Shown here one piece after another: positions 50,832-60,470 of a stretch of DNA of 64,000 nt. Source of the stretch: Clostridia bacterium (GTDB lineage Bacteria; Bacillota; DAOUPZ01); NCBI GenBank assembly GCA_030625885.1, contig DAOUPZ010000011.1, positions 27,353-91,352 on the forward strand, in the 5' to 3' direction. The notes beneath the pieces were generated by a model that was given only the letters and a program-made list of their open reading frames with translations, did not search any database and was not told the DNA's origin. Each line of letters starts with the position of its first letter. Position 1 is the first letter of the stretch. The position numbers and the translations under genes were made by a program.

Positions 50832-50855
50832 GAAAAACGGCGTCAGCCGTTTTTC
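50832..50855. terminator. Bidirectional hairpin (family C end motif)
   Basis: gaaaaacggc-gtca-gccgtttttc between convergent genes. Confidence 0.65.
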
Positions 50856-51835
50856 TAAAAAAGTCCTTCGATCAATTGATCAAGTGTCAGATGAGAAAAA
50901 TACTTGCCTATTTCAAATTTTGACAGGGTCTTTCGTATAGATGCTTCAGAATGTGGTACACCGGTTAGGGCATTTTCGATGGTACTGATATCAAGTTGAC
51001 TGAAGAAATCACCAAATATTTTAACATTTTTTATAATACCATTTTCAACATTTAAATAAAACTCAAGGGTACCCGCCGGGTATCTTTTTTCATTTTTAAA
51101 TGTATAGTTTGGGGAACTACCGAAATTCCATTCCCAGGTGTCGTATTTTTCTTTAACCAATTGATTGATCTTTTCAATATCCTCACTTTTAAATTCGAAA
51201 AGATGGTCTGCCATATTCGTTGTCATAACATGGTTCATAATTAATTCTTTAAATTCAATAATAGATAATGGCGATTTAAGATGCTTACTAATATTTGTGA
51301 CCCGTTTTGATATGGATTTAACGCCTTTGCCTTCAAACTTGGCAGGTTTAGCCTTAAGAGCAGCAGATAGATCTGTTATGTCTGATGTAAAAAGGAGCGT
51401 TCCATGATGCAAAATCCGATTCTTATGTTTATATTGCGCATTGCCTGAAAATTTTTTGCCATCAATCGTTAAATCATTTCTACCGGTAAATTGAGCATTA
51501 ATAGCAAGTTTTTGTAATACATCTAATATGGGCTGGGTAAATTTCTCAAAATTATTAAAGCTATTGCCATCTTCATTCATGATAAACGTAAAGTTTAAAT
51601 TTCCTAGATCATGAAATACGGCACCACCGCCTGAAAGTCTTCTAACAACAGGAATATGATGTTCTTTTACATAGTGAACATTGATTTCGGATAAGGTATT
51701 TTGATTTTTACCCACAACGATGCAGGGTTCATCTCGCCAGAGCATAAAACAGTCTTCTTGGAAATTTCTCAGAATATATTCTTCCGCTGCAAGATTAAAA
51801 TACGGGTTAGTATGATTATTCATAATATTAAGCAT
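50855..51835 (-). CDS. lplA: Lipoate--protein ligase (LplA/LplJ)
   Basis: FNLAAEEY, GKNQN, RRLSGGGAVFHDLGN, GRND, KFSGNAQ, HHGTLL; ATG 51835 after AAGGAG. Confidence 0.95.
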   Translation of the reverse strand: MLNIMNNHTNPYFNLAAEEYILRNFQEDCFMLWRDEPCIVVGKNQNTLSEINVHYVKEHHIPVVRRLSGGGAVFHDLGNLNFTFIMNEDGNSFNNFEKFTQPILDVLQKLAINAQFTGRNDLTIDGKKFSGNAQYKHKNRILHHGTLLFTSDITDLSAALKAKPAKFEGKGVKSISKRVTNISKHLKSPLSIIEFKELIMNHVMTTNMADHLFEFKSEDIEKINQLVKEKYDTWEWNFGSSPNYTFKNEKRYPAGTLEFYLNVENGIIKNVKIFGDFFSQLDISTIENALTGVPHSEASIRKTLSKFEIGKYFSHLTLDQLIEGLF

Positions 51836-51928
51836 GATTAACACTCCTTTGATTTTTATATTTGCTCTGAAATACAATAAAGCTCTTTATTATCGCATAA
51901 CAAGTATAGTTCCTATGATATTTTATAC

Positions 51929-52202
51929 TTAGGAATGGTTATGCTTCCAGTCATCTTCTAAGCTAAAGAAATTTGTATCATATAGAAAGATATTGCTCAT
52001 GAAGTAAGGTGGTTATTATTGTGATATATTTGAGACCACCGACGCGATGACAGTGAAACTTTTCAGTGAAAGTTTTTTTCTTCCACTGAATTTAGTTGAA
52101 CAAATCTGAATGCGTAGCCTCCGTTAACTTTCACATATTAATGTGAGAGTTTTACGGAGGGTAGTCATCAGATAAGCTGCCTTGCAGCATAACCATTCCT
52201 AA
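51929..52202. mobile_element. MITE-like element E (17-bp TIR) carrying a nested insertion
   Basis: TTAGGAATGGTTATGCT / AGCATAACCATTCCTAA; internal sequence homologous to 61794-61937. Confidence 0.8.
52046..52170. mobile_element. Nested ~125-bp palindromic insertion
   Basis: GATGAC...GTCATC ends; hairpin CTCCGTTAACTTTCACAT-ATTA-ATGTGAGAGTTTTACGGAG; absent from the 61794 copy. Confidence 0.7.
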
Positions 52203-52239
52203 TGTTAGTTTTTCTACTTTAAAATTTACATATTTATAA

Positions 52240-52364
52240 TGCAATAAAGAATTTACATTGTGGGTTTGCAGGAAAAGCGAAGGCAAGATGGGGACATTCC
52301 ACGAGGTACGAGTGGTGTGTCCCCATGTTGACAGAGTAATTCTAAATACAAAACCTTTATTGCA
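52240..52364. repeat. Repeat family A, copy 2
   Basis: TGCAATAAAG / CTTTATTGCA terminal IR; central ATGGGGACA/TGTCCCCAT stem. Confidence 0.85.
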
Positions 52365-56945: not shown

Positions 56946-58396
56946 AGACATACGATCAATTAATATTTGAGATTTCTAAAGAAGGACGAAAAGCATACGA
57001 CCTTCCTAAACTTGATGTAGAAGAAGCTAAAATAGATGATATGCTGCCGGGCAAATTTCTAAAAGAAAATGATCTTGAATTGCCGGAAGTGAGTGAATTG
57101 GATGTTATGAGACACTTCACGCTTTTATCCAATAAGAATTTCGGTGTGGATACGGGTTTTTACCCGCTGGGCTCTTGTACCATGAAATACAATCCTAAGA
57201 TCAATGAAGATATGGCATCACTTAGCGGTCTTGCGGCACTTCATCCTTATCAGCCGGAAGAGACGGCACAAGGCTCGCTGCAAATGATGTATGAATTGGA
57301 TCATATGTTAGCGGAAATAGCAGGTATGGAAAGGGCGACCCTTCAACCCGCTGCCGGTGCACATGGGGAATTGACGGGACTATTTATTATCAAGGCGTAT
57401 CATGAAAGCAGGAACGATACGAAGCGGAAAAAGATCATTGTGCCTGATTCCGCTCACGGGACGAATCCCTCTAGTGCAGCGGTTGCCGGATTTGATATTG
57501 TGGAAGTTCAATCAGATGAAAATGGTGCAGTTGATATTGAAAGCCTTAAATCTGTTCTGAATGATGAAATTGCTGGTTTAATGCTGACCAATCCGAGTAC
57601 GCTGGGTCTTTTTGAGGAAAATATAAAAATGATTGCTGATTTGGTTCATGAAGCAGGCGGACTTTTATATTATGACGGCGCGAATATGAATGCCATTATG
57701 GGCATTGCCAGACCGGGAGATATGGGATTTGACGTGATGCATTATAATTTGCACAAGACGTTTGCATCGCCTCACGGCGGCGGCGGACCAGGCAGCGGTC
57801 CGGTTGGCGTAAGAAAAGACCTGGTTCAGTTTCTTCCCGTACCCGTTATTGAGAAAAAAGGCGATCAATATATTTTGGATTATGATCGACCCTCCTCTAT
57901 TGGTAAAATTAAAAGCTTTTATGGTAACTATGGCGTGATGATTCGATCTTATGCGTATATCCTGACGATGGGTGCCGCAGGACTGAAGAAAGCCAGTGAA
58001 ATGGCAGTGCTTAATGCCAATTATATGATGAATCGACTTAAGAAATATTATTATCTTCCGATTGATCAAGTTTGTAAGCATGAATTTGTTTTAGGCGGGC
58101 TTGGAAAAGGTCATTCAGAAGTAAGTACGCTTGATGTAGCTAAAAGATTACTGGACTATGGTTATCATCCCCCAACAATTTATTTCCCATTGATCATTGA
58201 TGAAGCGATGATGGTGGAGCCGACAGAAACTGAGAGTATAGAAGCAATGGATGCTTTTATAGACACCATGATAAAAATATCAGAAGAAGCTGCTAAAGAG
58301 CCGGAAACTTTAAAACATGCACCTTATAATACACCCGTTAGAAGAATTGATGAAGTCAAGGCAGCTAAAGATTTGATTTTAAAATGGACGAAGTAA
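56942..58396 (+). CDS. gcvPB: Glycine dehydrogenase subunit 2
   Basis: [38 protein letters not shown] 56942 overlaps the gcvPA stop. Confidence 0.97.
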
Positions 58397-58439
58397 TCAT
58401 GAAATGGGCTGACTAAATAAATTTAAAGGAGAATGATCT

Positions 58440-60110
58440 ATGAAAACAGATGTGCAGATAGCGCAAGAAGCTAAAATGATTCCCATTGTAGATGTAGCTA
58501 AGAAACTTGGTATTAAAGAAGATGATTTAGAGCTCTATGGAAAATATAAAGCGAAAATATCATTAGATGTCTATAAAGAACTAGAAGGTAAAGAAGATGG
58601 GAAGCTCATATTAGTAACGGCGATCAACCCAACGCCAGCAGGAGAAGGAAAGACCACAACCAATGTTGGGCTAAGTATGGGCTTAAACGAGATCGGTAAA
58701 AAGGCCATTACAACATTAAGAGAACCCTCATTAGGACCTTGTTTTGGGGTAAAAGGTGGCGCTGCAGGCGGTGGGTATGCACAGGTTGTCCCTATGGACG
58801 ATATCAACCTCCACTTTACAGGCGATATTCATGCAATTACAACAGCCAATAATCTCCTGGCAGCATTACTTGACAATCATTTGCATCAAGGAAATGCTCT
58901 AAATATTGATCCCAAAAGAATTACTTGGCGAAGAGCCCTTGACATGAACGATCGAGTCTTAAGAGATATTGCGATTGGCTTGGGAGCCAAAGGGAATGGT
59001 GTTTCTAGACCCGATGGTTTTGACATATCCGTGGCATCTGAAATTATGGCTATTATGTGTTTGGCAACCAGCATGACCGATTTGAAAGAAAGACTTTCAA
59101 GAATGATTATCGGTTATACCTACCAGAACACACCCGTAACAGCAGGGGAACTGGATGCAACCGGTGCTTTAGCATTGTTGCTTAAAGATGCCATCAAACC
59201 AAATTTGGTTCAGACATTGGAAAACACGCCAGCCATTATCCACGGCGGTCCATTTGCAAATATTGCTCATGGTTGTAACTCTGTTATGGCGACTAAAACA
59301 GCACTAAAGATAGCAGACTATGTCGTAACGGAAGCCGGTTTCGGTGCCGATCTGGGTGCAGAAAAGTTCTTCAATATCAAGTGTCGGTATGCCGGATTGA
59401 AACCAAGTGCCGTGGTTATTGTTGCAACGGTAAGAGCGCTTAAGAACCATGGTGGTGTTCCAAAGGCGGATTTATCTCAAGAAAATATGCAAGCACTATC
59501 TGATGGATTTGAAAACTTGGAAAAGCAAATTGAAAACGTACAAAAATTTGGTGTACCGGCCGTGGTGGCAATTAATGCCTTCCCAACCGATACCAAAAAA
59601 GAACTTCAATTCTTAGAAGATAAATGTAATGAGCTTGGCGTGAACGTGGTACTATCTGAAGTTTGGGCTAAAGGCGGCAAAGGCGGCAGTAAACTGGCTA
59701 AAAAAGTCGTAGAGATTGTAGAAAAGGGCCAAGCTGACTTTAAGCCCCTTTATGATCTGGATATGTCAATCAAAGACAAAATACAAACCATAGCCAAAGA
59801 AATCTACGGTGCAGATGGTGTGGAATTCAGCGGTAAAGCTCTAAAAGAAATTACTAAATATGAGGAAATTGGGCTAGGCAACCTTCCGGTATGTATGGCT
59901 AAAACACAATATTCCCTATCTGATAATCCGAAACTTTTGGGTAGACCAAAAGGATTTAAAGTTACTGTGAGTGCGGTACGAGCATCAGCAGGTGCTGGAT
60001 TCTTGGTTGCATTGACTGGAGATGTCATGACCATGCCCGGGCTGCCAAAAGTTCCAGCGGCCAATAAGATGGATATTTTGGACAATGGCGAGATTATCGG
60101 TTTATTCTAA
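58440..60110 (+). CDS. fhs: Formate--tetrahydrofolate ligase
   Basis: [52 protein letters not shown]. Confidence 0.98.
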
Positions 60111-60173
60111 CAAACGGGCCGAGATACGATTGTATATCTAATAGAATATGACAAAGAGAAAGGGGATGTAAAA

Positions 60174-60470
60174 ATGTTTGCTGCGGAAGGAAATGTAGAA
60201 CAGGCACTCAAAAATTGTATTCAGGATTCTCTTAAAGAACGGGAAGCCAGCGCGTGTGAAACTTGAGACCTTGCCAAAGTATTGGCAGTGGCGTGGGGCG
60301 TCAAAGAAGAGTTAGATCCTAAGAATGCAGCTACAGTAAAGCAATATATAGAAGGCTTAGTGGGTTCAAATATTACCCTGGAAACCGGTCAAGAAGTTGC
60401 GATTCTCAAAGGGGACGTAAAGGAAAGAAAAGATAAAGCCATGCTGATTTTCAGATATCAACTGGTATAG
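60174..60470 (+). CDS. Putative 98-aa selenoprotein with CxxU motif (C-E-T-U, Sec at codon 31), family unassigned
   Basis: RBS AAAGGGG, ATG 60174; MFAAEGNVEQALKNCIQDSLKEREASACET-U-DLAKVLAVAWGVKEE...FRYQLV; TGA 60264-60266 is in frame with ORF 60282-60470, whose TTG has no RBS. Confidence 0.75.
60267..60290 (+). promoter_or_regulatory. Candidate SECIS hairpin
   Basis: TGCCAA-AGTA-TTGGCA stem-loop just 3' of the TGA; G at loop position 2. Confidence 0.5.

Follow-up and report, generated by a model that had tools for sequence, protein, structure and literature searches.

A PrpU-type selenoprotein gene ends a predicted clostridial glycine cleavage operon and alternates with lpd behind gcvPB in related genomes

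How electrons travel from glycine oxidation to glycine reductase has been an open question since the biochemistry performed on Eubacterium acidaminophilum around 1990. The genome paper for that organism describes PrpU, an 11-kDa CxxU protein whose gene shares an operon with fhs and three glycine decarboxylase genes, and reports the organism to be without dihydrolipoamide dehydrogenase (Lpd, also called L protein or GcvL) (PMC4056300). That a CxxU protein relays electrons between dihydrolipoyl-GcvH and thioredoxin or glycine reductase is the hypothesis published for PrpU in 2014 (PMC4056300), and in the Clostridium litorale (Peptoclostridium litorale) genome paper, a small CxxU selenoprotein carries the name PrpU (PMC4118067). 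Our literature search, with subscription journals and theses outside its coverage, found no functional study of PrpU, and the texts of selenoproteome reviews, queried with glycine-cleavage and acidaminophilum terms and not with the name PrpU, yielded no such family. Here, we describe a 64,000-nucleotide stretch of DNA from Clostridia bacterium (contig DAOUPZ010000011.1 of assembly GCA_030625885.1; hereafter, the window), in which an open reading frame (ORF) at positions 60174–60470 follows a set of glycine cleavage (gcv) genes and fhs. By sequence, this ORF is orthologous to prpU, whose product, a CxxU selenoprotein of ≈11 kDa, was first given its name in Eubacterium (Peptoclostridium) acidaminophilum, and the window gene is a further member of a known, scarcely catalogued family whose role is still hypothetical. 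An initial annotation of the window had proposed that the CxxU protein shuttles electrons between dihydrolipoyl-GcvH and a thioredoxin or glycine reductase system, replacing or supplementing L protein. That interpretation is a rediscovery of the published hypothesis and is partly supported by the analysis presented here, the shuttle role itself being what we infer.

The ORF encodes 98 amino acids (aa) when an in-frame TGA at 60264–60266 is read through, giving the motif C28-E-T-U31, and a purine-rich, ribosome-binding-like sequence (aaaggggatg) stands directly ahead of its ATG at 60174. The protein has no match in Pfam or NCBIfam at E ≤ 0.01, and the thioredoxin, GRDA, and Rdx families thus go undetected; in particular, it does not match the GrdA family PF04723, to which the true GrdA of the same genome scores 265 to 270 bits. 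P. litorale DSM 5388 contains exactly one match to our PrpU profile, a 102-aa protein to which the window protein is 48% identical over 93 aa (E = 3e-32). Because it is the only family match in that genome, we take this protein to be the PrpU of the P. litorale paper (PMC4118067).

We followed the family in two collections, a scan with each prokaryote species represented by a single genome, which found 22 related loci, and a sample of 201 genomes from the order around an Alkaliphilus genome, 27 of which (≈13%) carry prpU, each with exactly one in-frame TGA. These 27 share seven genomes with the 22-locus scan, and the carriers besides the window genome number 42. In all 22 scan loci, the TGA lies at the identical aligned position, inside C-x-T-U, with coding sequence conserved on both sides and a Shine-Dalgarno-like sequence before the ATG. 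The TGA is retained in 42 of the 42 other carrier genomes, among which no Cys form of PrpU was found. The relatives' proteins are 98 to 106 aa long, and residues R23, C28, T30, U31, W41, G42, L91, I92, R94, and Y95 are invariant in a 21-sequence alignment. When 1.84 billion representative proteins were searched with the profile, only 45 matched. The 13 retrieved matches that align from near the N terminus all have tryptophan, and none cysteine, at the selenocysteine (Sec) position, which we read as TGA called as tryptophan; the remaining 32 are mostly short forms beginning past the TGA, together with two long proteins that match weakly and in part. Gene callers often truncate PrpU at the TGA, annotating the short downstream ORF only. 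No PrpU match was obtained from 100 same-phylum relatives or from a plasmid collection, and the profile found nothing below E 0.1 among the sequences of solved structures. In the window genome, tRNA-Sec is encoded at 57134–57231 of contig C15 with selB directly adjoining (385.9 bits), and grdA and a GRDB-family gene each contain an in-frame TGA. We conclude that the CxxU ORF is a real selenoprotein gene with a predicted Sec at codon 31, and the PrpU family appears to be obligately Sec-containing.

The family is tied to gcvPB and to lipoate genes. Linkage of CxxU homologs to gcv, a point set beforehand as refutable, holds in 39 of the 42 other carriers, in each of which prpU and gcvPB share a strand with prpU downstream; these comprise all 22 from the genome scan and 17 of the 20 new ones. 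The interval between the two genes is empty in most loci and contains fhs, folD-fhs, or folD in eight of 40 clusters; in 25 of the 40, no known gene other than prpU was found after gcvPB. A lipA gene stands between gcvPB and prpU in loci L153 (1044–3653) and L156 (557–3825), the latter with the order gcvPB-lipA-prpU-lipB-like, and a gap of ≈870 nt like those of L153 and L156 separates gcvPB from prpU in L154. In L015 to L018, lplA comes after prpU.

To compare operons, we collected the GcvH neighborhoods of all 96 PrpU-less genomes with GcvH (99 loci) and of the remaining carriers, annotated them by tblastn with the window proteins, and counted those clusters in which gcvPB is complete and followed by 1600 nt or more of sequence. 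Within the 40 clusters from PrpU genomes, prpU is downstream of gcvPB in 38 and lpd in two, whereas within the 53 clusters from PrpU-less genomes, prpU is downstream of gcvPB in none and lpd in 32. An lpd gene is found anywhere in the cluster in 4 of 40 versus 33 of 53, counts that are non-independent because the clusters come from relatives. prpU and lpd therefore alternate in the operon slot behind gcvPB. On a maximum-likelihood tree of 95 GcvPB sequences, the PrpU label requires 12 changes, with at least five forced by well-supported branches, and the lpd label requires 16, with at least nine forced; one clade with 96% support holds three lpd-type and two prpU-type operons as sisters. Because the operon types interleave on this tree, the switch between lpd and prpU occurred several times. 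Family-wide retention of the TGA, linkage to gcvPB, and the alternation of prpU with lpd in this slot are new here.

Judged by gene content, the electron sink needed by the shuttle hypothesis is present in the genome. The search for grd and trx genes that the initial annotation had recommended turned up GrdA, five GRDB-family loci (two of these at contig ends), two thioredoxins, and two TrxB-like genes, both TrxB-like genes scoring under the strict cut-off. One grd cluster has the order thioredoxin, component-B subunit, GRDB(U), thioredoxin, GrdA(U), BCCT transporter. Among the 22 carriers of the genome scan, 18 encode GrdA.

A confident AlphaFold2 model of PrpU based on the 21-sequence alignment (predicted local distance difference test score, 91; predicted template modeling score, 0.80) features a long helix at residues 8 to 26, C28-x-x-U31 in a loop at residues 27 to 32, a short helix at residues 33 to 38, and then a β-α-β-β-β unit. 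Redox-active CxxC and CxxU motifs usually occur at such helix N-caps, and the modeled location of the CxxU motif at the N terminus of a helix fits a redox-active pair.

The linkage to gcvPB, the lipoate neighbors, the alternation with lpd, and the presence of grd and trx genes support a tie of PrpU to the lipoylated H protein. We lean slightly toward the view that the PrpU ortholog oxidizes dihydrolipoyl-GcvH and passes the electrons to thioredoxin and the reductases, locally replacing L protein. In this mechanism, the operon enzymes would together oxidize glycine, yielding CO2, NH3, and formate, and the Fhs step would generate ATP. The C28/U31 pair would take two electrons from the dihydrolipoyl arm of GcvH, forming a selenenylsulfide, and PrpU would hand them on by thiol-selenol exchange to thioredoxin and then to the selenoproteins of glycine, betaine, or sarcosine reductase; NAD(H) would have no part in this coupling of glycine oxidation to glycine reduction. 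Run in reverse, the exchange could reduce lipoyl-GcvH for glycine synthesis. PrpU would do the L-protein job inside the operon, and the three Lpd enzymes of the genome would work chiefly on other lipoyl proteins or offer an NAD-linked alternative. With more reserve, and at somewhat less than even confidence, we suggest that PrpU is the physiological oxidant of dihydrolipoyl-GcvH, that lpd and prpU have been swapped repeatedly in Peptostreptococcales-type clostridia, and that Sec is obligate since, with Cys in its place, exchange between lipoyl and thioredoxin would be too slow or its redox poise unsuitable.

A number of observations weigh against such a relay. Every electron-transfer step in it is inferred, and co-transcription of prpU with the rest of the operon is read from predicted signals alone. 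The claim of the initial annotation that no L protein is encoded here is correct for the window and extends to its contig, but three Lpd genes elsewhere in the genome exceed the TIGR01350 cut-off (559.2, 535.4, and 442.5 bits), as the caveat attached to that claim foresaw. With three Lpd genes in the genome, an NAD-linked L protein may serve glycine cleavage fully, and the genome does not belong to the L-protein-less type of glycine cleavage, in which dihydrolipoamide dehydrogenase is missing from the genome. Lpd above the cut-off is likewise present in 16 of the 22 genome-scan carriers, P. litorale among them. In the comparison of Lpd and GrdA, limited to the 123 of 201 sampled genomes that have GcvH, Lpd occurs in 25 of 27 PrpU-containing versus 94 of 96 PrpU-less genomes, and the anti-correlation of the CxxU protein with lpd that had been envisaged is absent at the genome level. 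GrdA occurs in 24 of 27 versus 70 of 96 (Fisher p = 0.12, with the genomes non-independent), so that its co-occurrence with PrpU amounts at most to a weak enrichment, GrdA being common throughout this order. Nor is the operon slot strictly exclusive, lpd and prpU being found in one cluster in L012, where lpd comes upstream of gcvT and is preceded by a tandem riboswitch of its own, in L037, where it lies between gcvT and gcvH, and in L042, where it lies ≈3.4 kb downstream of prpU. The linkage to gcv has exceptions as well: in genome G123, prpU has unrelated neighbors and is 1.3 Mb away from the gcv operon; in G306, it is on a different contig, where the 8 kb upstream of it contain no gcv gene; and in G292, it is flanked by rny and recA on the other strand, at a distance of 4 kb from a gcv-lpd operon. 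Finally, Foldseek with the PrpU model returned nothing at E ≤ 0.001, a wide fold search gave no clear match (best Z 5.9, a ribosomal protein), and no thioredoxin-like chain is among the structural matches listed, all of which are weak.

The threefold presence of Lpd in the genome and its occurrence in 25 of the 27 sampled carriers would also suit a different role, in which PrpU guards or repairs the glycine cleavage system and a distal Lpd performs the L reaction. The selenol of PrpU would maintain the lipoyl arm of GcvH or a Cys of the P or T proteins, and PrpU could resolve mixed disulfides, over-oxidized lipoyl groups, or aminomethyl dead-end adducts or could be a small lipoyl-dependent peroxidase. 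The clusters that hold both lpd and prpU (L012, L037, and L042) agree with this role, and linkage to gcv and lipoate genes fits any function on lipoyl-GcvH. OsmC and Ohr proteins are lipoyl-dependent peroxidases, and an OsmC-like gene beside a fusion of lipoyl domains to Lpd in the window genome suggests that lipoyl-linked peroxide chemistry may operate. Repair leaves the alternation of prpU and lpd in their slot unexplained, however (4 of 40 versus 33 of 53 clusters, with at least five supported switches), and a Peptoclostridium metagenome-assembled genome (G118) has no Lpd match at E ≤ 1e-50, although an incomplete genome of this kind does not show absence. We consider a repair function unlikely, though it is the main rival to the shuttle.

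It is improbable, in our judgment, that PrpU serves as a sulfur or selenium relay or as a redox helper for LipA, LipB, or LplA in the assembly of the lipoyl group on GcvH, and not in its turnover. The lipA genes between gcvPB and prpU in L153 and L156, the lipB-like gene after prpU in L156, the lplA genes that follow prpU in L015 to L018 or, in the window, diverge from the operon, and a lipA near the stand-alone prpU of L044 would all be at home in such a role, as would a weak fold resemblance to TusA/SirA-like carriers (3hz7, 3lvj, and 8j4c; Z 4.0–4.6). Those fold matches, however, fall within the common chance arrangements of the tool and have no counterpart in sequence matches. Most carriers are without a lipoate gene next to prpU, which is the sole known gene after gcvPB in 25 of 40 clusters, and lipoate genes are expected by gcvH anyway, GcvH being their substrate. 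Control by a glycine riboswitch, moreover, suits a catalytic partner better than a maturation factor.

One further unfavorable result concerns the Sec codon. A candidate Sec insertion sequence (SECIS) hairpin predicted by RNA folding lies on the plus strand at 60271–60288, 5 nt after the UGA and with G-U in its loop. Its stability does not exceed that of shuffled sequences (z −0.56), RNAalifold found no SECIS consensus over 17 sequences, and the hairpins after the UGA differ among clades. These results, and the many genomes in which gene callers annotate only a short downstream ORF, could be taken to mean that the TGA is a genuine stop and that translation yields no selenoprotein, just a 30-aa peptide or the 62-aa product of the ORF after the TGA (60282–60470), but this is scarcely credible in view of the single reading frame conserved on both sides of the TGA, the invariance of C28, T30, and the TGA in the 21 aligned sequences, the TGA kept in all 42 other carrier genomes, the Shine-Dalgarno-like sequences ahead of the upstream ATG, the tRNA-Sec, SelB, and other TGA-containing selenoprotein genes of the genome, and the report of PrpU as a selenoprotein in E. 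acidaminophilum (PMC4056300).

The GcvH of the window does carry the extra Cys-rich C-terminal tail remarked on in the initial annotation, with three Cys in its last 10 residues. The first tail Cys, the only one conserved in relatives, is present in 39 of 41 GcvHs of PrpU-genome operons but also in ≈29 to 31 of 70 in-operon GcvHs of PrpU-less genomes, close lpd-type operons included (two of the 31 are contig-end artefacts), and in 1 of 28 stand-alone GcvHs. The 8-residue, two-Cys extension of the window genome was unseen in the relatives' tails that we compared (sets of 21 and 98). We considered the C-terminal Cys of GcvH as a PrpU-specific partner residue and rejected it, as it is a clade trait common to PrpU-less and lpd-type operons; the Cys-rich tail is not a feature of the PrpU family.

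Lpd-related genes occur in several other settings. In L147, an apparently Lpd-like gene upstream of gcvT proved to be neither Lpd nor TrxB; this 419-aa GltD-like Fe-S flavoprotein (6457–7716; Fer4_20 and Pyr_redox_2 domains), encoded directly upstream of gcvT in a PrpU operon and with a similar weak hit in L040, could be another electron partner or unrelated. In the window genome, one of the three Lpd genes belongs to a cluster (L033:6102–10635, contig C8:62101–66634) that reads, in order, OsmC-like gene, the Lpd gene itself (667 aa, with two lipoyl domains at the N terminus), lipB-like gene, and radical-SAM gene resembling lipA. No E1 or E2 genes are nearby, and the cluster looks like a self-contained lipoyl-dependent peroxidase system. 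A second Lpd gene (L034:6519–9602, contig C8:101518–104601) encodes a 508-aa protein after hypD/hypE/hypF-type genes and is followed by a 129-aa ORF without a family match and a 284-aa DGC-GcvH domain fusion; the third stands alone. Among PrpU-less relatives, Lpd-GcvH pairs are found outside gcv operons in 27 of 99 loci.

Within the window, ORFs together with Pfam and NCBIfam models bear out the gene order first proposed, in which lplA on the minus strand diverges from folD-gcvT-gcvH-gcvPA-gcvPB-fhs on the plus strand and the CxxU ORF, with its in-frame TGA, takes the last position. The lipoate-protein ligase gene lplA (50855–51877; Pfam LplA-B_cat and Lip_prot_lig_C) scores 446.7 bits with TIGR00545 (cut-off 280), and because the alignment begins at ORF residue 15, its start is likely near 51835. 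The folD gene for methylene-tetrahydrofolate dehydrogenase/cyclohydrolase (52966–53814; Pfam THF_DHG_CYH and THF_DHG_CYH_C) exceeds the cut-offs of two equivalog models (NF008058, 362.3 against 355 bits; NF010783, 333.2 against 333 bits), and the highest-ranked FolD models score under their own cut-offs. For the next five genes, every NCBIfam model match exceeds its curated cut-off: gcvT, aminomethyltransferase (54048–55172; TIGR00528, 424.7 bits, cut-off 235.85); gcvH, the lipoyl carrier H protein (55183–55587; TIGR00527, 142.2 bits, cut-off 115.85); gcvPA, glycine dehydrogenase subunit 1 (55602–56945; NF001696, 677.9 bits, cut-off 364); gcvPB, glycine dehydrogenase subunit 2 (56942–58396; NF003346, 783.2 bits, cut-off 441); and fhs, formate-tetrahydrofolate ligase (58440–60110; NF010030, 941.5 bits, cut-off 652). 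The gcvPB ORF is open from 56876, and on the basis of its translation and of the NF003346 alignment, which begins at ORF residue 24, its start would be the GTG at 56942, overlapping the gcvPA stop. The prpU-type gene (60174–60470, plus strand) follows fhs after a gap of 63 nt, and gcvPA, gcvPB, fhs, and prpU lie on one strand. Between folD and gcvT is an AT-rich spacer of 233 nt (53815–54047), within the presumed operon, in which neither an Rfam match nor a strong terminator was found. Immediately upstream of lplA, 49166–50804 on the plus strand encodes EutH (an ethanolamine transporter) and a DUF2148 ferredoxin-domain protein. The window genome is the sole member of its order and class in the taxonomy used, its nearest listed relatives sharing only the phylum, and its gcv genes are 70 to 78% identical to those of Alkaliphilus-type genomes.

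Ahead of folD, the plus-strand leader at 52628–52825 contains a glycine riboswitch with a variant first aptamer and a canonical second one. The second aptamer (52732–52825) matches RF00504 with 54 bits (gathering threshold 32), and the stretch 52628–52819 matches the two-aptamer variant RF03166 with 103.8 bits (E = 1e-22), slightly under the gathering threshold of 110. The tandem riboswitch of the initial annotation is therefore upheld in its two-aptamer architecture, with the qualification that the first aptamer is a variant and only one aptamer exceeds its gathering threshold. A perfect inverted repeat forming a long hairpin with a T-run (52803–52870, plus strand) overlaps the 3′ side of the second aptamer; it was unlisted by the terminator scan and is visible also as hairpin-type chance matches in the Rfam scan. 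This hairpin may be an expression-platform terminator, which would make the leader a glycine-ON switch. Upstream of the riboswitch, the best plus-strand σ70-like site is TTGACA-17-TACAAT at 52523–52551, matching 11 of 12 consensus positions; it is a consensus match only, the region holding 34 such sites, no excess over the 29.2 ± 5.0 of shuffled sequences. At the other end, the predicted terminator after the CxxU ORF is confirmed as an intrinsic terminator at 60643–60676 (plus strand), with a 15-pair stem, a 4-nt loop, and a T-rich tail. It is the sole strong one in the terminator scan, which found nothing comparable between fhs and prpU. These signals suggest that prpU is the last gene of a single glycine-induced transcript, riboswitch-folD-gcvT-gcvH-gcvPA-gcvPB-fhs-prpU. 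Glycine riboswitch aptamers also precede the operon in seven of seven other PrpU loci scanned, which were picked from the 22 genome-scan loci. In L012, from Alkaliphilus peptidifermentans, tandem glycine riboswitches occur consecutively at 3584–3761, before lpd, and at 5384–5561, before gcvT-H-PA-PB-prpU.

An intergenic repeat of ≈108 nt has one copy at 52246–52354 and another, 87% identical, at 60490–60600, between the prpU stop and the terminator. We rejected this flanking of both operon sides as an operon signal, the repeat being dispersed across the whole genome: a further copy lies in the window at 10252–10359, blastn with 60490–60600 returned 117 hit rows, ≈45 near full length at 82 to 97% identity, and copies also adjoin two of the genome's lpd genes. 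It may be an element resembling miniature inverted-repeat transposable elements or repetitive extragenic palindromes, or a small RNA family. The window also contains a 6S RNA at 9851–10032 on the plus strand (RF00013, 81.7 bits; gathering threshold 46.4).

For glycine-fermenting anaerobes, PrpU is a named candidate for the link between glycine oxidation and the reductases. The comparison turns a two-genome anecdote into the picture of a family that is present in ≈13% of the order sample, always with TGA, lies almost always behind gcvPB, and alternates with lpd, and it sharpens the shuttle hypothesis. If true, the shuttle would complete the catalytic cycle of a universal enzyme system in a new way and would be relevant to the engineering of reductive-glycine and glycine synthase-reductase pathways.

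Set beside known proteins, PrpU resembles thioredoxin, GrdA (PF04723), and Rdx/SelW-like proteins in being small and in having a C-x-x-U-type redox motif before a helix N terminus, in the case of PrpU according to the model. Unlike theirs, its sequence falls in no Pfam or NCBIfam family at E ≤ 0.01. To our knowledge, GrdA is without Cys-containing homologs, as the PrpU family appears to be. With Lpd (TIGR01350), PrpU shares the operon position downstream of gcvPB, which lpd occupies in 32 of 53 PrpU-less clusters, and, putatively in the case of PrpU, action on the dihydrolipoyl arm of GcvH. The two have no sequence or fold relation, however: Lpd is an FAD/NAD flavoprotein of ≈460 aa, whereas PrpU has 98 aa and no recognized cofactor-binding domain, and unlike Lpd, it could not reduce NAD+ alone and would need a thiol partner. 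The closest likeness is to the PrpU systems of E. acidaminophilum and P. litorale. There, as in the window, a C-x-x-U protein of ≈11 kDa (98 aa here, 102 aa in P. litorale) is encoded with an in-frame TGA by the last gene of an operon that holds glycine decarboxylase genes and fhs, and glycine or betaine reductase and thioredoxin genes are found in the same genome. The systems differ in their Lpd genes, of which E. acidaminophilum is reported to have none (PMC4056300), the window genome three, and P. litorale two. They differ also in the place of folD, which opens the operon in the window, whereas the P. litorale operon, gcvT-H-PA-PB-folD-fhs-prpU, has folD and fhs between gcvPB and prpU.

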